Counted from the first letter of the stretch, positions 15,778 through 53,361 are shown. The stretch: 64,000 nt of DNA from Minisyncoccota bacterium (GCA_018062765.1 JAGORR010000001.1:10087-74086); one strand, 5' to 3'. Notes: a model not told the origin generated them from the letters alone. Numbers and translations: made by a program.

Positions 15778-18700
15778 TTAGGAAGTCTTACGGAGCGTGA
15801 ACGAAACGGGGCCGGTAGAAAGCTCTGCCGTGTAAGGCCCCGCGCCGCGCTCTATTTCGACCGTGTCTTTGGGCGAGAGCCCGAGCGTCTTGCGCGCCTC
15901 CGCAACCGCCCTCTGGAATTGGCGCTCGTCACCTTCTCGCACCAACTCTGGAGTAAGTGACGTATCGAGAGAGACTTCCGTTGCGCGATATAGAACCTTC
16001 TTTACGTTCACCTCGTCCGCAAGTATCGCGGACAGCTCGGGCGATAGCGAGCCCGGTATTGAAAGCGAAGCGAGCGGCTGGCGCACCGCAACATTCGCCT
16101 TCTGACGGAGCATGAGTGCTTCAGACGCAAGTCGTCGCACCTCCTGCATCTCGCTAATAAGACTCTCGTTCGCGCGCGCGCCGAATATGCGGGCCATCAA
16201 AGGCGCCTTGACCGTCGGCCAGTCAGAGAGGTGCACGCTCTCCGCATCGTCCGCACGCTTCACTGCCTGGAATATCTCCTCTGCCACAAACGGAACGATT
16301 GGAGCCGCAGCACGGGAGAAGCGATGCAGAGTTTCGCGCAAAGTCGAAAGCGCTGCCGCCGCGTCCTTCCCTTTCATACGGTCGCGTGAACGCCTGAGGT
16401 ACCAGGTCGAAAGATCGTCTACAAATTCGCGTATGGGGCGCGTCGCGCGCGGCACGTCATAGCGATCGAACGCCTCCGTCATCTCAGCGATCGTGGCGTC
16501 GAGTCGCGCGGTAATCCAGCGATCAAGCGGGTCTGCACTCTTCTGGCTCGTATCCGTAGCCTCATCCGCAAACAATGAGTAGAACGCAAGAACGTTGCGC
16601 AACATGTTGATGACACGGCTGTGCGCCTCCTTCACATCCTCGTCGCGGAAGAAGAGGTCCTCCGCTTGCATGACGACCGAGGCCATCAGGTAGTAACGGA
16701 ATGCGTCCGCGCCATAGCGGTCAAACAGCAAATACGGGTCGGTGTAGTTCTGCTTCGATTTAGAGAGCTTCGCACCATCGCCCGCGTTCACGTTCCCGGT
16801 CGTGATGACATTTCGGAACGACTGGCGGTCGAAGAGTTCAACGGACATCGCATGCATGTAGTAGAACCACGCGCGCGTCTGGCCGATATACTCCGATATG
16901 AAATCTCCCGGGCTCCGTTTCTCAAACTCGGCACGGTTCTCAAACGGATAGTGGTACTCCGCAAATGGCATGGAGCCAGATTCTACCCAGCAGTCAACGA
17001 CTTCCGGTATGCGCGTAAGCGCCTCTCCCTTCTCATTTACGAGCGAGACGCGGTCGATATAAGGCAAGTGGAAGTCGAGTTCGTACCGCGTGTTGTGCGG
17101 AAGCGGGACGAACGCGAGCGGGCAGACCGTTCCCGGCTCAGGATTCATCTCATCGAGAATTTTCTTGGATTTCTCCGGTCCTGCACCCTCGACGATACCC
17201 GCGAAGACCTCGCAGCCAATACCGTGAGACACAATCAGTATGTTCTCGTTCTCGCTTGAGGCCTCGAGCTCATACAGGAATTCACCGAATCGCTCCTTCG
17301 CATCCTGATAGCTCTCGCCGCCTGGCATGCGGTCATCAAAAGACGTGATGTGCTCATCTTCATATGCGAGGAAGTCCGTGAATGCGCGCCCGTGGTATTC
17401 CCCAAACCCGAACTCGCGGAGCCGATCGTCGTACGTGATGCTGTCCTCTGGAATTCCGAGCTTGCGGGCGATAAGGGCTGCGGTCTCTCTGGTGCGTGCA
17501 AATGGAGACGCGTAAATACGCGTTATGCGTTCCTTGCCAAGACGCGCCGCGGCGTCGTTCACCTGCTCCTTCCCTTTCTCGGTAAGCGGCCACTTCTTTT
17601 CGTCGGTTGAGTCGATGACGTTTTTGGCGTTGTGCTCTGCCTCCCCGTGCCTCATCACGAAGTACCGATTCCCGCTCTTTTTGGTGAGTGATTTAAGCTC
17701 CGCAAGAGAGCCGACAACGGTGACGTCGCCCGCCGCGTTCTTCCAAATCGGGAGCGGGCTCGCCCAGAAGCGGTTCCGGGAGATGGTCCAGTCCGGAGCG
17801 GTCTCTATGATGTGGCGGAACCTGCCCTGCTTCAGATGTTCTGGCACCCAGGTGATGTTCTCATTCTCCTCGAGCATGCGCTCTTTGACCGCCTGTATGT
17901 TTATGAACCAGCTTGAAACGGCGTTAAATATGAGCGCCGTGCCGCACCGATAGCAGTGCGGGTACGAGTGCGTGTACGGACCTGACGAAAAATGCAGGCC
18001 CTTTTCCTTCAGGTACTCGATGACCTTCGGATTCGCCTTGCGGATGTATTCTCCGTGGAGCATCTCAGGCGCGTCCGTGTTGTAGGTCGCGTTCGCATTA
18101 AGAAGCTGCACCATCGGAAGCTTCTCCTTCTGTCCTAGCGCGAAGTCGTCCTCGCCGTACATAACGGCGGTATGGACGACGCCGGTACCATCCTCAGTCG
18201 TGACGAAGTCAGCGGCGACTACCTGATACTTTTTTTCCTTTGCGTTCGCAATCTTCGGTACCTCGAACAATGGTTCGTACTCGACACCGACGATTTTCTT
18301 CGCGGGTACATCCTGCGCAGCAGCCGAGAATCCGTTTACCTCTGCCAACGCCGTCGCAAGCACGAAATGCTCGCCGTTCTTTTCGTAAAGTCCGTACGCG
18401 ACTTCAGGGCCCACCGCCAAGGCGACGTTCCCCGGGAGTGTCCACGGCGTCGTCGTCCACGCGAGGATGAATGTGTTTTCCGGAAGACCGTGCTTACCGG
18501 GATTCTTTACGCGGAATTTCACCGTGACCGCCTCATCCGTCACGTCCTTATAAGTGTTGTCCATCGCGATCTCCGCCTTCGCAAGCGGCGTCTCGCAGTG
18601 CGGGCAGTACATGAGGACCTTCCGTCCCTCGTAGAGCCGGCCCTTCTTGTGTATCTCCTTGAGACCCCACCACACGCTCTCGGTGTAGGACGCATCCATC

Positions 18701-19143
18701 GTCTTGTACGCATTATCGAAATCAACCCAGCGCCCGACACGCTCTACGTAGCGCTTCCAGTCATGGACGTAATCGAGGACCATCGAGCGCGCCGCCTCGT
18801 TGAAGGCTTCTATGCCGGTCGCGAGTATTTCCTTTTTATTCTTGAGTCCGAGCTTCTTCTCGACCAGTGACTCTATGGGGAGTCCGTGGGTGTCCCAGCC
18901 CCATCGGCGCCGTACGAAAAAACCGCGCATCGTCTTGTAGCGCGGGATGACATCCTTCGACACGCTTGAAAGCAAGGAACCCGAGTGAGGGAGCCCGGTC
19001 GCAAACGGCGGCCCGTCGTAAAAGACGAACTCTCCGTTAGGCGCCTTCTTTGAGAGAGATTTTTCGAATATCCCCTTCTCCTTCCAGAAGGCCAATGTCT
19101 TTTCCTCCCGGAGGGCTGCCTCCGATTTCTCTGCCTCTGCCAT
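15778..19143 (-). CDS. ileS: Isoleucyl-tRNA synthetase (type 2/eukaryote-like) with inserted histidine-phosphatase (PGAM-family) domain
   Basis: WGWDTHGLPIE, TTTPWTLPGN, WTISRNRFWASPLPIW, KLSKSKQNY (KMSKS variant). The HIGH position reads PHSGS. Residues ~518-680 carry RHGEAEHN...SPFARTRETA...EFGFGEYHG...VSHG, the histidine phosphatase motifs. Start trimmed from 19218 to the ATG at 19143 (MAEAEKSE...). Confidence 0.9.
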   Translation of the reverse strand: MAEAEKSEAALREEKTLAFWKEKGIFEKSLSKKAPNGEFVFYDGPPFATGLPHSGSLLSSVSKDVIPRYKTMRGFFVRRRWGWDTHGLPIESLVEKKLGLKNKKEILATGIEAFNEAARSMVLDYVHDWKRYVERVGRWVDFDNAYKTMDASYTESVWWGLKEIHKKGRLYEGRKVLMYCPHCETPLAKAEIAMDNTYKDVTDEAVTVKFRVKNPGKHGLPENTFILAWTTTPWTLPGNVALAVGPEVAYGLYEKNGEHFVLATALAEVNGFSAAAQDVPAKKIVGVEYEPLFEVPKIANAKEKKYQVVAADFVTTEDGTGVVHTAVMYGEDDFALGQKEKLPMVQLLNANATYNTDAPEMLHGEYIRKANPKVIEYLKEKGLHFSSGPYTHSYPHCYRCGTALIFNAVSSWFINIQAVKERMLEENENITWVPEHLKQGRFRHIIETAPDWTISRNRFWASPLPIWKNAAGDVTVVGSLAELKSLTKKSGNRYFVMRHGEAEHNAKNVIDSTDEKKWPLTEKGKEQVNDAAARLGKERITRIYASPFARTRETAALIARKLGIPEDSITYDDRLREFGFGEYHGRAFTDFLAYEDEHITSFDDRMPGGESYQDAKERFGEFLYELEASSENENILIVSHGIGCEVFAGIVEGAGPEKSKKILDEMNPEPGTVCPLAFVPLPHNTRYELDFHLPYIDRVSLVNEKGEALTRIPEVVDCWVESGSMPFAEYHYPFENRAEFEKRSPGDFISEYIGQTRAWFYYMHAMSVELFDRQSFRNVITTGNVNAGDGAKLSKSKQNYTDPYLLFDRYGADAFRYYLMASVVMQAEDLFFRDEDVKEAHSRVINMLRNVLAFYSLFADEATDTSQKSADPLDRWITARLDATIAEMTEAFDRYDVPRATRPIREFVDDLSTWYLRRSRDRMKGKDAAAALSTLRETLHRFSRAAAPIVPFVAEEIFQAVKRADDAESVHLSDWPTVKAPLMARIFGARANESLISEMQEVRRLASEALMLRQKANVAVRQPLASLSIPGSLSPELSAILADEVNVKKVLYRATEVSLDTSLTPELVREGDERQFQRAVAEARKTLGLSPKDTVEIERGAGPYTAELSTGPVSFTLRKTS

Positions 19144-19170
19144 GATTGAAATATCGTAGCGTTTTCGCGG

Positions 19171-19206
19171 GTAAAAGGAAAACAGGCCGCGCGTAAGCGC
19201 GGCCTG
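19171..19206 (-). terminator. Rho-independent terminator after small-protein operon / upstream of ileS
   Basis: On the minus strand CAGGCCGCGCTTACGCGCGGCCTG is followed by TTTTCCTTTT. Confidence 0.55.
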
Positions 19207-19227
19207 CGGGTTCGGCACAAGGCCGTG

Positions 19228-19786: not shown

Positions 19787-21433
19787 TTACATCCTTTCCG
19801 GCGCTGGGATGCCGAGCATCGAAAATCCTGCTCGCATAGTGTTCGCAAACGCGCGCGCAACTTGCTGCTTGTATGCCTCCTCCGGGCTCCCCAGTATCTG
19901 CTCGGTTGCATAGAATGCATTCCAAGCGGAGGCGAGCTGCGTCAGATACTGCGCGATATGGTGGGGCGCTGAGTCCTGTCGAGCTCGCGCACAAACGCCC
20001 GGGAACCGGAGAAGGAGCCGCTCGATGGTATAGGGTTCCGCCGGTGTCTCTCCTCCCCCGCTCTTGTTGTCGTAGGTCAGTACCTTGAGTGCCCGCACGA
20101 GAGCGTACTGGAGGTATGGGCCGGAGTCGCCTTCAAGGGAAAGTGATTTCTCCGGATCAAAGATGATGTCGCCACCCGGTGCCTGCCGGAGAATCATGTA
20201 TTTGAGTGCGCCTACCGCCACCTGCTCCGCCACAAGAGAGTCCTCGTTCTTCTCCTTCGCCTTCTCTATGACCTCGTCAATTATTTCCTTTGCGGTTATG
20301 ACCGTTCCCTCGCGCGATGACATCTTCCCGGACGTCAGGCGCAAAAATCCATGCGGGATGTGCCGCGTTTTCTTTGCTACCAGGGGCGCGATGTCCTCGA
20401 GTGCGGCGAGGAACACAGCAAAGTGCCCGGACTGCTCTGCGGCCGTGAGGATAATGCTCTCATCGCTCGGCACCCGCTCCTCCTTAAGGAAGGCGAGGCC
20501 GATATCTTTTGCTTCGTAGGTTGGCGTGTCGCGGCTCGTGATGAATACGAGGGTGTGGAGCCCCTTCTTCTCTCCTTTATATATAATCGCGCCCTCGCTC
20601 TCCTCGAACACGCCCTTCGCGAGTCCCTCCTTCACGATACGCATCCCAGGCTCCGCTGTTTCGCTCTCAAAAAAGAAGTAATCGAACTTCGTGCCCATCA
20701 AAGCGTATATCTCGTAGAAGGCCTCCAGGGAAACTTCTCGTGCGCGGCGCCACAAATCCATGAGACCCGGGTCCTCGCCTTTGTATATTTCCTGATTCAG
20801 CGCATCTATCTCTGCCTTCGCTTCCTCACTCTTTTCATACGCCTGCGAACCATGCGCATACGCCTTCCCTATCTCCGCACTGTTTGCGGGCTCGGTAACG
20901 CCATCCTTGCGGAGTGCCCACAATGCCTTTGCGATGTGCGGACCGACGTCCCCGCCGTAGCTGTCGCGAATAACCGTCGCGCTTCCTGATTCGATGACAC
21001 GCGCAACTGCCTCGCCAATAACGGTCGACATGAGGTGACCAACATGCATCTCCTTCATCGGGTTAGGGCAGGAATACTCGACGATGACGCGCTTTCCGAG
21101 TGATTCCTTCGTGCGGCCGAGTGACTCCCCTGCTTTTGCAGCGTGCTCAATTTCCGCACGCACGCTTGCGGGCGAAAGGGTGATGTTCACGAAACCAGGC
21201 CCGGCAGCCTCCACCTTCGTGACGAGGTCCCCGAGAATCTCCGCGACTTTGGTCGCGAGCTCTCCCGCGAGTTCCTGAGGATTCCGGCCAAGCTTCTTTG
21301 CGGCTGCCATCGCGGCGTTCGTCGCGTAGTCTCCGTGGGTTAAGTCACCCGGCCACTCAACCGCAAAGGACGTTCCCTCGACACCCATTTCAATGAGCGC
21401 CTCCTCGACAGCTTTTCGTATCCGCTCCTCCAT
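19787..21433 (-). CDS. argS: Arginyl-tRNA synthetase
   Basis: HVGH motif (NPMKEMHVGHLMSTV) and ArgRS N-terminal add-on domain similarity. Confidence 0.95.
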   Translation of the reverse strand: MEERIRKAVEEALIEMGVEGTSFAVEWPGDLTHGDYATNAAMAAAKKLGRNPQELAGELATKVAEILGDLVTKVEAAGPGFVNITLSPASVRAEIEHAAKAGESLGRTKESLGKRVIVEYSCPNPMKEMHVGHLMSTVIGEAVARVIESGSATVIRDSYGGDVGPHIAKALWALRKDGVTEPANSAEIGKAYAHGSQAYEKSEEAKAEIDALNQEIYKGEDPGLMDLWRRAREVSLEAFYEIYALMGTKFDYFFFESETAEPGMRIVKEGLAKGVFEESEGAIIYKGEKKGLHTLVFITSRDTPTYEAKDIGLAFLKEERVPSDESIILTAAEQSGHFAVFLAALEDIAPLVAKKTRHIPHGFLRLTSGKMSSREGTVITAKEIIDEVIEKAKEKNEDSLVAEQVAVGALKYMILRQAPGGDIIFDPEKSLSLEGDSGPYLQYALVRALKVLTYDNKSGGGETPAEPYTIERLLLRFPGVCARARQDSAPHHIAQYLTQLASAWNAFYATEQILGSPEEAYKQQVARAFANTMRAGFSMLGIPAPERM

Positions 21434-21453
21434 ATATACGTCGGATGATAACA

Positions 21454-21480
21454 GAAAAGGCCCCTTGCGGGGCCTTTTCT
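21454..21480. terminator. Bidirectional terminator hairpin
   Basis: GAAAAGGCCCCTTGCGGGGCCTTTTC. Confidence 0.55.
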
Positions 21481-21513
21481 GTAAGCTGTTCGCTATACGC
21501 TGTCAGCTGACTT

Positions 21514-22020
21514 CTAGTCGTTACCAGCCTTCGCGTTTGCCCAGAAACTAAATCCTGGGAGCTTGAACTTGCTCCAGAACCCTACCTTTTTGCCGTTGTC
21601 GTGTTCATCGTCATCGTTACCCGCATCGTCACTAGACCAGTCGCGAACGATATCAGCCTCAACAGAGGTTGCGTCGGTAAGCGTGCCGGAGAAGCTCACG
21701 TAATCGCCCTCGGATAGATCAGCGAGTACGGTTGAATCCCCATCGGCTTCGTAGAACGCAGTCTCGCTATCCGTGTCTATGGCCCAAGAGAGGGTCACGC
21801 CGTTAACGAGAGTTGTAGCAGTCAGAGAAGAATCGCCAACGTCAGTAATCTTTGCACCACGCACGAGCGTCGAGCCGTCGTTTGCGATGGCGATAGACAC
21901 CTTAGCCGGGTCAAACTGCCTTCCGTCATTACCCTTGCCCTCGCCACTGTTGGCGAACGCAAACGCAGGGACGGCAATAAGCGCACCGACTGCGGTAATA
22001 GCTGCGATTTTTTTCATCAT
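21514..22020 (-). CDS. Hypothetical secreted protein (signal peptide, acidic C-terminal region)
   Basis: MMKKIAAITAVGALIAVPAFAFA signal peptide. Confidence 0.5.
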   Translation of the reverse strand: MMKKIAAITAVGALIAVPAFAFANSGEGKGNDGRQFDPAKVSIAIANDGSTLVRGAKITDVGDSSLTATTLVNGVTLSWAIDTDSETAFYEADGDSTVLADLSEGDYVSFSGTLTDATSVEADIVRDWSSDDAGNDDDEHDNGKKVGFWSKFKLPGFSFWANAKAGND

Positions 22021-22088
22021 AGAGTGGGTATGTAAGGGTTTAGCTTATAACCATGCACCCGTATGAAGACGTCCATGACAACTGGAAA

Positions 22089-22736
22089 TTACACACCCTG
22101 CCTGAATATGAAATCTTTAATCTGCGGAAAATAGTGAGTTAGAGGAATAGTAATTGCTGCAGAGAGTACGGCGCCGATTAGTAAGAGGATTATCTGGTCC
22201 TTATTTCTCGAAAAGAAATTCTTTTGCTTGTATTTTTCATACAGAATCACGGTGCTGTGTCTGAACATTTGTATGTATGCAACCCACAGAATCCAGAGAA
22301 AAGAGAGGCCGGAGCCAATTTTAAGAAGTGCACTTGTTGTGAAAAGGCTAGCTATGACGAAACTCAGATTTGTAAGCATTATAAGAACATACGAATAGGC
22401 CACGCTTGGCCTCCGAAGTCGTCGATGAAGTACTTGAGATGTTCGATAATAAATCCCCGCCGCAATTCCCTGACTCGAAGCGCTATATATACTAGCGATG
22501 TACGCTTCCAGCTCTAAGGAGATATAAGGACTACCCGCTGAAATTTTCAGACTATTTAGAATTTCTCCGTCTCTTTTCCTCGCCAGTTCCTCTATACTTT
22601 CATACTTATGTTCTCCGTCTGAGAGAGTAACTTCCCGTGAAGCCTCCTTTAGGATTTTTTCAATTTCGATCAAATCCTCTATATAGAGCTTGACCGGGGG
22701 GAAATATTTCCTTAAAGAGTTATCAATTCGCTCCAT
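22089..22736 (-). CDS. Hypothetical membrane protein encoded on a low-GC (~40%) insert; ~115-aa soluble N-domain plus 3 C-terminal TM helices
   Basis: Sharp GC drop exactly between the glyA stop (22739) and ~22080. ATG at 22734-22736. No similarity recognised. Confidence 0.55.
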   Translation of the reverse strand: MERIDNSLRKYFPPVKLYIEDLIEIEKILKEASREVTLSDGEHKYESIEELARKRDGEILNSLKISAGSPYISLELEAYIASIYSASSQGIAAGIYYRTSQVLHRRLRRPSVAYSYVLIMLTNLSFVIASLFTTSALLKIGSGLSFLWILWVAYIQMFRHSTVILYEKYKQKNFFSRNKDQIILLLIGAVLSAAITIPLTHYFPQIKDFIFRQGV

Positions 22737-22738
22737 AC

Positions 22739-24001
22739 TTAGAATGAGCTGGGGACCGGATGCGCGAGGGCCATCGCACGAACTTCCTCGCGAGCTTTTG
22801 CTACCGAGGTGTCGCCTCTATCTTTGAGGACTTCGAGCATGAGGGTCGCGACCTGCTTCACCTCATCGACCTTGAACCCACGCGTTGTGAGCGCCGGCGT
22901 ACCGAAACGAATACCGGACGGATCCATTGGTTTTCGGGTATCGTCCGCAATCGAGTTTTTATTGAGCGTGATGCCGGCCTTATCAAGCAGGGTCTCCGCT
23001 TCCCCACCAGGAATACCGAGTGAGCCAAACACGTCGGCCAAGATGAGGTGATTGTCGGTTCCTCCTGCAATCAGACGCACACCACCCGCCTTAAATACTT
23101 CCGCCATTGCCTTCGCGTTCTCGACGACATTTGCCGCATAGGTCTTGAACGAAGGCGCGAGCACCTCGCGGAACGCGACAGCTTTCGCGGCTATCTGGTG
23201 CATGTGCGGTCCGCCCTGAAGCCCGGGAAAAATCGCCTTGTCTATTTTCTTCGCGACCTCCTCGCTCTCGCGCGTCACGATCATGCCTCCTCGAGGACCA
23301 CGGAGCGTCTTATGCGTCGTCGTGGTCATCGCATCGAATCCGTAGTCAAACGGATTCTTTGCTGCGCCTCCCGCGATGAGTCCTGCGATGTGCGCGACAT
23401 CAGCAACGGCGTACGCGCCTACCTCCTTCGCAATATCGGCGAGACGCTTCCAATCGAGTTCGCGCGGATATGCAGAGAATCCAGCAAGAATAATCTTTGG
23501 CTTTTCGGCTTTGGCAGTCTCGAGGAGTGCGTCGTAATCAATCTCCCCTGTCTCGATGTTCTTCATCTTGTACCGGACGAAACGGAAAATCTTCGAGATG
23601 TAGGTCACCGGGTGCCCGTGCGTAAGGTGCCCGCCGTGAGATAAGTCCATACCGAGAATCGTGTCCCCGGGCTCCATGAGCGCCATGTAAAGACCGATGT
23701 TTGCGTTTGCACCCCCGAGTGGCTGCACGTTCGCGTACGCCGCGCCAAATAGTTTCTTCGCACGGTCTATCGCAATCAGCTCTACCGCATCCGTAAACTG
23801 CTGCCCGCCGTAGTAGCGCTTACCCGGATATCCTTCCGAGTACTTGTTCGTAAACGGGCTCGCCATCGCTTCGCGCACCGCCTTCGATACGTAGTTCTCC
23901 GACGGAATAAGCTCCAGCCCTTCCTGCTCGCGCTTCTCCTCCCCTTCGATGGCATCGTAAATCTCTTTGTCTTCGTCGCGGATGTGCTGGTAGTAGTCCA
24001 T
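22739..24001 (-). CDS. glyA: Serine hydroxymethyltransferase
   Basis: LELIPSENYVSKAVREA, PLP-lysine region HKTLRGPRGG. Confidence 0.97.
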   Translation of the reverse strand: MDYYQHIRDEDKEIYDAIEGEEKREQEGLELIPSENYVSKAVREAMASPFTNKYSEGYPGKRYYGGQQFTDAVELIAIDRAKKLFGAAYANVQPLGGANANIGLYMALMEPGDTILGMDLSHGGHLTHGHPVTYISKIFRFVRYKMKNIETGEIDYDALLETAKAEKPKIILAGFSAYPRELDWKRLADIAKEVGAYAVADVAHIAGLIAGGAAKNPFDYGFDAMTTTTHKTLRGPRGGMIVTRESEEVAKKIDKAIFPGLQGGPHMHQIAAKAVAFREVLAPSFKTYAANVVENAKAMAEVFKAGGVRLIAGGTDNHLILADVFGSLGIPGGEAETLLDKAGITLNKNSIADDTRKPMDPSGIRFGTPALTTRGFKVDEVKQVATLMLEVLKDRGDTSVAKAREEVRAMALAHPVPSSF

Positions 24002-24690: not shown

Positions 24691-24714
24691 GATGGCTCCA
24701 GTATACTGGCCCCA

Positions 24715-51828: not shown

Positions 51829-51901
51829 GCGCCCATAGCTCAGTTGGTAGAGCAGCTCCCTTTTAAGGAGTTGGTCCCTGGTTCGAGCCCAGGTGGGCGC
51901 A
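51829..51901 (+). tRNA. tRNA-Lys (anticodon TTT)
   Basis: GCGCCCATAGCTCAGTTGGTAGAGC, anticodon loop CTTTTAA, T-loop TTCGAGC. Confidence 0.85.
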
Positions 51902-51902
51902 C

Positions 51903-51945
51903 AAACACGAAAATCCTGGTCTGCACCAGGATTTTTCGGTTTGTG
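51903..51945 (+). terminator. Rho-independent terminator after tRNA-Lys
   Basis: GAAAATCCTGGTCTGCACCAGGATTTTTC within an extended stem ACAAACACG...CGGTTTGTG. Confidence 0.55.
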
Positions 51946-52189
51946 CGCGGCGGAACCATGTTTTGCGAGCACGCAAAACGGGTGAGCCAGGGTCGTGGCC
52001 TGAAGCGAGTGACGACGAGCTTCAGAGCTATGACCACCAAGTCCTGACGGGAACGTTTATCTCTTTTTCGTGATAAAATATACCTTGTGAGAATTTTTAT
52101 CCCCTCATACAAATCGTCACTACTGGGACTTTCATACGGAATGCTTGCGGTCCTCGCAATAAACTTTTCATTGACGAATCCGTTCGTAG

Positions 52190-52219
52190 TTCCTATACTG
52201 CCTGCAGGCAGTATAGGAA
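52190..52219. repeat. Perfect palindrome (13-bp arms) TTCCTATACTGCC TGCA GGCAGTATAGGAA, 17 bp downstream of the 52229 gene
   Basis: Read directly from the sequence. Candidate bidirectional terminator or protein-binding site. Confidence 0.6.
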
Positions 52220-52228
52220 CATAGAAGC

Positions 52229-52696
52229 TTACTGACCTAAAAATTTTTCTACAAGTCTCCCGAAGCCCGAAAGGGCTGTTTTCTTTACTCTCGGAAAAAG
52301 TGCGTCTATCGATTCTTCCAATTGGTCCACCTGGACTCTTCTGAAGTTAGGCGCCTCGGGACTGACTATTACAAGCTCTGCCTCAGGCCAATATGCCAGT
52401 AGTTGAGCGATTCCGTGAGCGACATTACGACCACTGCTTTCGGCACCACGAAATTTCACCTTTATCAGCGCCACCTGCACCCCTTTTCTATCAAAAACGG
52501 CGAAAGATGGCGCCGTGGTCAAACGTCCTGCAGCTTTCGATTTATTGAGGACCGCGTCTTCACGAGAAATATTTATTAGCAGACCCTCTTGGGAAATTCT
52601 AACTACCTTATATCCCGCATCCGTAAGCAGTAGCTCGACCAAATGCTCTGCGAGCCTTCCCTTAACTAGAGCTTCTGGAGTTATTTGTGGCATGAC
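52229..52696 (-). CDS. Hypothetical protein, ~47% GC, YraN/Hjc-like (PD-(D/E)xK nuclease fold) resemblance; co-operonic with holA
   Basis: True start MPQITPE is 8 nt after the holA stop, with a GGAGGT SD. GYKVV and FAVFDRKGVQVALIKVKF resemble UPF0102/Hjc, but the usual Glu appears replaced. Confidence 0.4.
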   Translation of the reverse strand, partial: VMPQITPEALVKGRLAEHLVELLLTDAGYKVVRISQEGLLINISREDAVLNKSKAAGRLTTAPSFAVFDRKGVQVALIKVKFRGAESSGRNVAHGIAQLLAYWPEAELVIVSPEAPNFRRVQVDQLEESIDALFPRVKKTALSGFGRLVEKFLGQ

Positions 52697-52704
52697 ATTA
52701 GTAA

Positions 52705-53361
52705 CTACCTCCCCACCCCCAAACTCCAACTTTCCAACCCCTCCCCAAACCCCCTCCCTCCGCTCCTCGCCTCTGATTGCAACTCTATAAGTTCCATCGA
52801 TAATTCTCGCGCCTCCTTCGCGCTCCATGCACGCGCGCCCTTAGTCATGATGTCGCGCGCCTTCCAATGCAACAGGCCGTGAATCATCTCGGGTGCATCC
52901 CCTTCCCGCATTGCCGAAACTATCTCTAGCCACAACGCCTTCCCATCACGTGCCGCAAGCGCGTTCACCAACCCGCTATTGAAACCTCTCGACTCCTTCT
53001 TCGCCGCCGCATCAACCGTAAACACCTTCTCTGCATTCCCCTCTAACTTCTTCATTTGCGCCGCAAGAAGCTTGGGTGCCAGTATCGCGATTGCGTTCGG
53101 AGACTCCGCAAGCGTCTTTAAATGCTCCAGCACGGTCTCTCCGCTGTCTTTCAATGAGAAAGGATCATCAACGACAACCAGCGACTTCGAAAAAAAGAGC
53201 CCACTCGCCCCCGCAGCCTGCGATAAACTTTCCGCACTCACCTCCTCCGGAAGAATCCTTATATATGGAGCCTCTGGCGCCTTCGCGCGTGCGGCTGCGA
53301 CCCAGGCAAACGCCTTCTGGCGCGTCCGGTTAACATCGCTACCGGTAAAGAGATAGATCAT
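52705..53361 (-). CDS. holA: DNA polymerase III delta subunit-like (HolA)
   Basis: MIYLFTGSD N-terminus and HolA-like helical C-terminus. Start trimmed to the ATG at 53359-53361. Confidence 0.65.
   Translation of the reverse strand: MIYLFTGSDVNRTRQKAFAWVAAARAKAPEAPYIRILPEEVSAESLSQAAGASGLFFSKSLVVVDDPFSLKDSGETVLEHLKTLAESPNAIAILAPKLLAAQMKKLEGNAEKVFTVDAAAKKESRGFNSGLVNALAARDGKALWLEIVSAMREGDAPEMIHGLLHWKARDIMTKGARAWSAKEARELSMELIELQSEARSGGRGFGEGLESWSLGVGR

Follow-up and report, generated by a model that had tools for sequence, protein, structure and literature searches.

The stretch of DNA analysed here, called the window throughout, comprises 64,000 nucleotides from a Minisyncoccota bacterium (GCA_018062765.1 JAGORR010000001.1:10087-74086), and its most clearly foreign gene is ORF215, an open reading frame (ORF) of 215 codons that starts two nucleotides behind the stop codon of glyA. 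We consider it very likely that ORF215 was acquired horizontally, the insertion itself being a case of ordinary horizontal transfer. The gene belongs to a large, partner-less and unnamed family of proteins of ~210 aa that are predicted to lie in the inner membrane. As to function, the best explanation at hand, to which we give slightly less than an even chance, is that ORF215 is acquired stand-alone cargo, a putative one-protein immunity module acting at the membrane.

Composition and position of ORF215

The features at the site of insertion are the following:

22739..24001, minus strand: glyA, resident gene upstream of ORF215, encoding serine hydroxymethyltransferase (Pfam SHMT, 6e-151)
22737..22741, minus strand: glyA-ORF215 junction, made up of the glyA stop codon TAA (22739-22741) and a 2-nt spacer, GT
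22089..22736, minus strand: ORF215, 215 aa, ATG at 22736-22734 and stop codon TAA at 22089-22091 (from the ORF list)
22021..22088, minus strand: AT-rich 68-nt spacer between ORF215 and the next gene, sec168

A sequence-only reading of the window had singled out a low-GC single gene at this place, encoding 215 aa and starting 2 nt after the glyA stop codon, and both the gene and its position are borne out. From the end of glyA to the start of ORF215 the junction reads TTC TAA GT ATG GAG, and the C-terminus of GlyA is intact, as its terminal residues agree with those of a 92%-identical orthologue in a related genome (L007). The flanks of ORF215 form a string of nucleotide, one-carbon and tRNA-synthetase genes, i.e. 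its neighbours are housekeeping genes.

ORF215 has a GC content of 0.410, where the window averages 0.567 (z = -5.7 among all 648-bp windows), and the lowest-GC 648-bp window of the whole 64 kb begins at 22103, inside the gene. GC at third codon positions (GC3) is 0.419, the minimum in the window, where 63 ORFs have 0.665 +/- 0.057 (z = -4.3). In addition, the Karlin codon-usage distance of ORF215 (0.568; z = +2.5) makes it an outlier with respect to the rest of the window. Both of the composition checks proposed by the sequence-only reading, GC and codon usage, show a deviation, and GC3 and codon usage place it at synonymous sites as well as in the amino-acid content.

The same reading had described the segment as cleanly delimited, which is true of one edge. 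Upstream, at the glyA stop codon, GC falls sharply from 0.58-0.66 to 0.32-0.40 across 22726-22750 (50-bp windows). Downstream the edge is diffuse, with a GC of 0.36-0.46 through the spacer (22021-22088) and into the AT-rich start of sec168, as far as ~21980.

Five independent assemblies of one Pacebacteria species encode an identical protein in identical surroundings. Two of them are metagenome-assembled genomes that NCBI lists as Candidatus Pacebacteria, two come from Logan and one from ENA. Since the gene is intact and identical in all five, it is not an assembly artefact. No second family member (paralogue) was found in the 64-kb window.

The glyA locus in related species

In order to place the insertion, related loci were collected by a scan with the GlyA protein, taking one genome per species, which gave 80 related loci. 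Two further genes of the window are needed for the comparison:

21514..22020, minus strand: sec168, a resident gene for a 168-aa secreted protein with a signal peptide, a weak DUF5666 match and normal GC
19787..21433, minus strand: argS, the gene beyond sec168, which marks the ancestral glyA-argS junction

The gene order thyA/tmk-glyA-argS-ileS is kept across the Paceibacteria/Kaiserbacteria-type relatives. Using a family profile hidden Markov model (HMM), a member of the ORF215 family is found within +/-6 kb of glyA in 0 of the 80 related species. Among 39 relatives the gap between glyA and argS spans 19 bp to 4.5 kb, and in 11 of them the start of argS is separated from glyA by fewer than 100 bp, the arrangement by which the ancestral junction is defined. 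In the closest relative, whose glyA is 92% identical, glyA is followed by a terminator hairpin and then by a convergent gene.

One relative, L055, provides an analogue of the empty site: its glyA is followed by a 67-nt spacer and a homologue of sec168, and the spacer length is thus nearly that between ORF215 and sec168 in the window (68 nt). A DNA alignment of the two spacers detects no homology. The arrangement in L055 identifies sec168 as resident and the insert as essentially the 648-bp ORF plus two bases.

Other relatives carry different genes in the same gap. Low-GC SocA/Panacea antitoxin modules lie there in L019 (7288-8241) and L021 (7608-11731), the latter also with an MmeI-type type IIG restriction-modification (R-M) enzyme; L017 (7320-10267) has peptidase- and DUF-type genes; and DUF2000, C39-like and NlpC/P60 genes are among the cargo of the junction. 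The glyA-argS junction looks like a clade-wide hot spot for the insertion of cargo in Paceibacteria/Kaiserbacteria. No tRNA or Rfam match is found near the ORF215 site, the Rfam matches in the window being tRNAs elsewhere.

Composition, absence from the locus in 80 species, the empty site in L055 and the hot spot together agree with the earlier proposal of a horizontally acquired gene within a housekeeping string. The alternative is that ORF215 is native to its lineage and restricted to it, was inherited vertically, and owes its low GC to the amino-acid composition of a membrane protein. GC at first and second codon positions (GC1 and GC2) is indeed lowered too, as expected of a protein rich in I, L, F, K and N, and neither a mobility gene nor a repeat flanks the site. 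However, GC3 lies 25 points below that of the genome's genes, the gene is missing at the locus in the 80 related species while L055 preserves the empty-site analogue, and the nearest homologue, from an organism with 31% GC, shares only 41% identity with it. We regard vertical inheritance as scarcely credible.

A large family of unnamed proteins

An exhaustive search with HMMER, covering 1.84 billion cluster representatives (clusters at 50% identity), returned 1,202 homologous representatives at E <= 1e-3, of which 400 reach E <= 1e-10. All 1,202 are ~205-235 aa in length and align end to end with ORF215, their N-termini being in register from residue 1. A word-indexed protein search is nearly blind to the family (2 and 6 matches from two queries); the nearest homologue, on the 31%-GC contig mentioned above, is the only relative that it revealed. 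The statement of the sequence-only reading that ORF215 has no recognisable homology is therefore correct as far as named families go, but overlooks these 1,202 unnamed relatives.

In an alignment of 87 family sequences the mean column identity is 29%. Conserved positions are D21, L22, I25, S47, E50, L51, P70, Y71, G94, R108 and S161, and the alignments define one signature motif:

22194..22217, minus strand: signature motif FFSRNKDQ, codons 174-181, at the cytoplasmic entry of the third transmembrane (TM) helix

Across 150 sequences the motif residues F174, R177, N178 and D180 are conserved at 91%, 87%, 72% and 92%, respectively.

Searches of ORF215 against Pfam (no match at E<=1), NCBIfam and PADLOC-DB v2 (0 matches) gave nothing, and no consistent Pfam, PADLOC or PHROGs match exists among the 87 members, for which PADLOC yields four scattered single-member matches only. 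A match of ORF215 to phrog_3325 'TreN-like membrane protein' (E 2.6e-4, aa 168-210) was rejected as a chance match between TM helices, as it is shared by 0 of the 86 other members. The family profile also finds nothing among PDB sequences (best E 0.26).

Predicted structure and topology

ORF215 was modelled with AlphaFold2 using the family alignment, which gave a predicted local distance difference test (pLDDT) score of 96.3 and a predicted template-modelling (pTM) score of 0.83. The model and the family hydropathy divide the protein into two parts:

22401..22736, minus strand: cytoplasmic alpha/beta N-domain, codons 1-112, order b-b-a-b-b-a-b-b-b-a (AlphaFold2, DSSP)
22128..22400, minus strand: membrane part, codons 113-203 (model helices, family hydropathy)

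The modelled elements are an alpha/beta domain (aa 8-105), helices at 116-132 and 136-158, a strand at 161-164 and a helix at 179-214; the mean hydropathy of the family has its maxima at 124-149 and 188-197. In ORF215 numbering TM1 covers ~114-133, TM2 ~138-158 and TM3 ~182-203, with a basic loop at 159-181. A soluble N-terminal domain followed by three hydrophobic helices is also what the sequence-only reading had described. On family average the N-domain carries a net charge of -3.8, while positive charge is concentrated before TM1 (+2.9) and in the loop between TM2 and TM3 (+3.1), loop 1 and the C-terminal tail being close to neutral (0.1 and 0.4). By the positive-inside rule, these two basic segments give an N-in, C-out orientation, which would place the N-domain and the motif loop in the cytoplasm and the C-terminus outside.

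Foldseek searches with the model found no significant match in PDB or BFVD (best E 0.13 and 0.055, respectively); the non-significant matches are loose alpha/beta sandwiches resembling HPr, TBP and phosphoglucomutase domain 4. The family thus remains unnamed, with a fold that is confidently predicted by the model and unmatched in PDB and BFVD.

These results bear on the suggestion, made in the sequence-only reading, that ORF215 is holin-like, i.e. a lysis protein left by a decayed prophage. Three TM helices would suit a holin, one of the 87 members weakly matches the holin profile phrog_689, and a terminase adjoins the family gene in one genomic context (see below). On the other hand, the other 86 members match no holin profile, no locus has an endolysin or spanin neighbour or any other sign of a lysis cassette, and no relatives are found in BFVD, in the 50,697 phage records of INPHARED (by tblastn) or in IMG/VR (by a pattern scan), at the sensitivity used. 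Furthermore, a conserved, folded cytoplasmic N-domain of 112 aa is atypical for holins. This origin of ORF215 is highly improbable.

Genomic contexts of the family

Besides the window, 19 independent contexts of family members were examined, and their neighbouring genes were annotated with Pfam; a locus search with a narrow family alignment yielded 11 metagenome loci. In 12 of the 19, hallmark genes of defence or of mobile elements lie close by:

L001: OLD-type ABC-ATPase/TOPRIM protein
L090-93: NmeDI-type endonuclease (NmeDI_C) and a UPF0236 transposase-family gene
L094: AbiEi/AbiEii and an MTES_1575 nuclease-like gene
L098: terminase next door
L099: EcoRI-type methylase, 4 nt, the family gene, RhuM, then GmrSD
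L103 (1177-4291): family gene between an N6_N4_Mtase methylase (587 aa) and a ResIII helicase subunit, with gaps of 12 and 10 nt
L104: HTH_17 and a tyrosine integrase
L109-111: DUF4145, BrnT and IS1595
L112: serine recombinase with a rolling-circle Rep
L114: DUF3854/AAA_25 primase-like element
L115: IS110 and rve transposases
L116 (1-10687): integrase, Toprim-DUF3987 primase, HTH regulators and a 1,187-aa Mrr_cat_2-ResIII helicase

Two of these contexts are particularly informative. In L103 the family gene appears from its neighbours to sit inside a type III R-M operon, and its GC3 (0.24) is lower than that of the methylase and ResIII genes (0.39 and 0.47). In L116 a distance of 690 nt separates the family member from the integrase of an integrative element, which looks like a defence-cargo element and which we take to resemble P4-type satellites. 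An identical protein, P0009, is encoded in both L090 and L091, where the first downstream gene is the same and the sequences diverge beyond it.

Further details concern L001. A neighbour there was labelled 'Gp49-like' from reading its sequence, a label that we treat as an assumption, as there is no Pfam match on record and PHROGs gives none. At 661-831 of the same locus, an ORF of 56 aa resembles only the P-loop start of a nucleoside/thymidylate kinase and ends 1 nt before the family ATG; insertion of the family gene may have truncated a kinase gene.

An all-against-all blastp comparison of neighbouring genes in 21 loci revealed no recurrent partner, the family gene being the only one common to the loci. 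The absence of a recurring neighbour identifies the family gene as a stand-alone module. In each of 14 contexts examined, the GC content of the gene falls short of the locus mean, by 0.7-12 points. GC3 is lower than that of the host in mid- and high-GC hosts (0.44 vs 0.60-0.69, 0.26 vs 0.41-0.45 and 0.45 vs 0.76), but not in AT-rich ones, a pattern consistent with horizontal circulation of the genes out of AT-rich reservoirs. At six loci, that of the window among them, the start of the family gene lies 1-12 nt behind a gene of the same orientation, and in most loci a Shine-Dalgarno (SD)-like sequence is absent from its start region. Neither a conserved DNA motif nor an attC-like hairpin was found at the gene ends in 18 loci. 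A tblastn search of the 72,556 plasmids of PLSDB found no relatives at the sensitivity used. Taken together, we consider it probable, with fair assurance, that the family travels as cargo of defence islands or mobile elements.

That the gene stands alone also weighs on the idea that ORF215 is a toxin, or the remnant of a toxin-antitoxin (TA) or addiction module, the last of which had been put forward in the sequence-only reading. It would account for a small, AT-rich membrane protein whose gene in most loci starts without an SD-like sequence; TA modules fill the same hot spot in relatives, and BrnT and the unconfirmed Gp49-like gene lie near the family gene in two contexts. A conserved adjacent partner is nevertheless absent from all 21 loci, the flanks in the window are glyA and the resident secreted-protein gene, and all five assemblies have the same intact gene. 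We judge this origin very unlikely.

The integrative-element contexts (integrase with Toprim/DUF3987, serine recombinase with Rep, primase-like gene, terminase) invite a different interpretation, namely that the family serves the mobile elements that carry it, by superinfection or entry exclusion or as an element-stabilising membrane factor, and that ORF215 is a stranded remnant. A single small membrane protein without a partner would be in keeping with such a role. However, in most of the exclusion proteins known, the functional domain faces the periplasm or the surface of the cell, whereas the large domain of ORF215 is predicted to be cytoplasmic. The lack of matches in the phage records, the plasmids and IMG/VR also argues against it, as do those contexts in which the gene lies inside an R-M operon without element genes. 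Service to a carrier element is in our view unlikely.

The remaining 7 of the 19 contexts show hypothetical, DUF-family or metabolic neighbours; most of them are short contigs, the longest being L095 (10.8 kb). Together with the position of ORF215 in a nucleotide/one-carbon/tRNA-synthetase string and the failure to find homology to defence families, they could mean that the family is a mobile accessory membrane protein without an immune role (for example as an anchor, as a regulator, in stress or envelope functions, or as a transporter accessory), whose defence neighbours merely share the same variable regions. Yet no metabolic or transport neighbour recurs, family genes lie inside R-M operons and beside Abi, OLD and GmrSD genes, and TA and R-M cargo occupies the same junction in relatives. 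An accessory role is accordingly given a low probability.

Expression of ORF215

Beyond sec168 the window has one further feature relevant to transcription:

21451..21482, no strand assigned: perfect 14-bp hairpin ACAGAAAAGGCCCC/GGGGCCTTTTCTGT in the sec168-argS interval (inverted repeat)

It is likely that this hairpin is the terminator that closes a tmk-glyA-ORF215-sec168 unit. A scan for terminators and promoter-like sites found neither in the interval from glyA to ORF215, which makes co-transcription with glyA and translational coupling by termination and reinitiation the likely mode of ORF215 expression.

The sequence-only reading had also listed the absence of an SD sequence among the marks of the gene. 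The observation is accurate but uninformative, as an SD-like tetramer precedes only 7 of 35 window genes; being without an SD is the norm in this genome and hence no sign of foreignness. Many of the 35 start regions contain a TAnnnT box, placed 8-12 nt ahead of the ATG. These boxes and the scarcity of SD sequences suggest that leaderless mRNAs, or mRNAs with very short leaders, may be common in this genome.

The neighbour sec168 has a detectable homologue in L055 only among the 80 relatives, which suggests that it may be patchily distributed as well.

Comparison with known systems

Several known immunity proteins combine a cytoplasmic domain with a few TM helices, e.g. SLATT proteins, the TM effectors of CBASS and Pycsar, the type III CRISPR ancillary proteins Cam1 and Csx23, and the 2TM effectors of retrons. 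Like them, the ORF215 family is small, AT-rich and mobile and occurs in defence islands and mobile elements, and by analogy its likely action would be to perturb the membrane after a cytoplasmic signal. Unlike them, it has its own order of parts (an N-terminal soluble domain, three TM helices and an F-x-x-R-N-K-D motif), matches none of them by sequence or profile, and has no signal-generating partner, i.e. cyclase, CRISPR locus or reverse transcriptase, conserved nearby. The SLATT-like affinity suggested by the sequence-only reading finds no backing: neither ORF215 nor the 87 members show SLATT, Pfam or PADLOC support, the 21 loci have no conserved partner of the SMODS, RT, TIR or any other kind, and three TM helices differ from the two of the SLATT core.

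As a one-gene, low-GC insert between resident genes that is patchy among relatives, ORF215 resembles stand-alone abortive-infection (Abi) genes and phage morons. Classical morons bring their own promoter and terminator, in contrast to the ORF215 insert, which consists of the ORF only, lies 2 nt behind a stop codon and lacks a terminator; and, unlike the Abi families, ORF215 has no Pfam or PADLOC Abi match.

Two further comparisons concern the manner of insertion. The glyA-argS junction, holding different TA, R-M and other cargo from one species to the next, is similar to the defence hot spots known from P2/P4-like elements and from core genomes, but differs from these in that it belongs to ultra-small Patescibacteria genomes, has no integrase or tRNA mark and received a single 0.65-kb insert. 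A promoter-less single ORF oriented with the upstream transcription unit likewise recalls integron cassettes; here, however, no intI lies near the site and the ends have no conserved sequences. No attC-like imperfect inverted repeat was seen downstream in the window and 17 other loci, in a search made without a dedicated attC model that weak sites could escape.

A possible immunity module

The explanation that we favour, a stand-alone membrane-acting immunity module, would work as follows. Little beyond the ORF itself would have been inserted, directly behind the glyA stop codon and at the hot-spot junction between glyA and argS. ORF215 would be transcribed by read-through from the tmk-glyA unit, and ribosomes ending on glyA would reinitiate on it. 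The cytoplasmic alpha/beta domain might then sense a cue of infection, upon which the three-helix part would oligomerise and either compromise the membrane (abortive infection) or block the entry of foreign DNA. That ORF215 is a phage-defence or exclusion effector in this sense is a real possibility that nevertheless stops short of being probable. Among the functions named in the sequence-only reading, a membrane effector of the abortive-infection type is the best guess.

A survey has found defence functions to be over-represented among the genes that Patescibacteria received by horizontal transfer (PMC12455944). Members of the ORF215 family recur within R-M operons, next to Abi, OLD and GmrSD genes and on integrative elements.

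The genomes of Patescibacteria are tiny and show few defence systems that can be recognised, and a foreign gene that is kept intact in a core operon of such a genome likely pays its way. As its family occurs elsewhere in phage-defence islands and mobile elements, ORF215 is a credible candidate for a new defence gene.

A number of observations weigh against an acquired immunity module. With regard to acquisition, no integrase, transposase or meaningful flanking direct or inverted repeat marks the insertion, and the I/L/F/K/N richness of a membrane protein accounts for part of the low GC. With regard to immunity, ORF215 lies outside any defence island in this genome and is without homology to any proven defence protein, the 87 members having 0 consistent PADLOC matches; the family has no relatives in the phage, plasmid and IMG/VR searches given above; and the association with defence and mobile genes comes from 19 contexts, many of them short contigs, with no formal background rate, 7 of these contexts showing neighbours of other kinds. 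Finally, with three TM helices per chain no pore is possible without oligomerisation.

A much broader proposal is that the family constitutes a widespread (at least 1,200 clusters) and undescribed form of single-protein membrane immunity against phages and other mobile genetic elements, which moves as an ORF-only cassette behind host stop codons and for which the glyA-argS junction is a dedicated landing pad. By settling behind a host stop codon, even where that lies within an R-M system, between mod and res, such a cassette would borrow the transcription and translation of its host. In this full form we find the proposal rather unlikely.

If ORF215 is a one-gene membrane immunity module, a compact system would be added to the catalogue of defences, and glyA-argS, a junction of core genes, would be established as a hot spot for cargo within a phylum that is uncultured. 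Should ORF215 have no part in defence, it would still be a clean, dated case of an ORF-only insertion with translational coupling to a housekeeping gene.

Other features of the window

Some observations were made elsewhere in the window. The divergent genes tmk and thyA have their start codons 24 bp apart and share a common palindrome, CCAGTATACTGG (24691-24714). The ileS gene (15778-19218, minus strand; 1,146 aa) contains a His_Phos_1 domain inside the synthetase, the Pfam order being tRNA-synt_1 / His_Phos_1 / tRNA-synt_1, an unusual fusion. The second-lowest GC patch of the window, 51900-52230 (648-bp minimum 0.45), is mostly non-coding, is adjoined by an ORF without a Pfam match (52229..52828, minus strand) and lies directly 3' of a tRNA gene (51829-51901, plus strand); the patch may be a remnant integration site.

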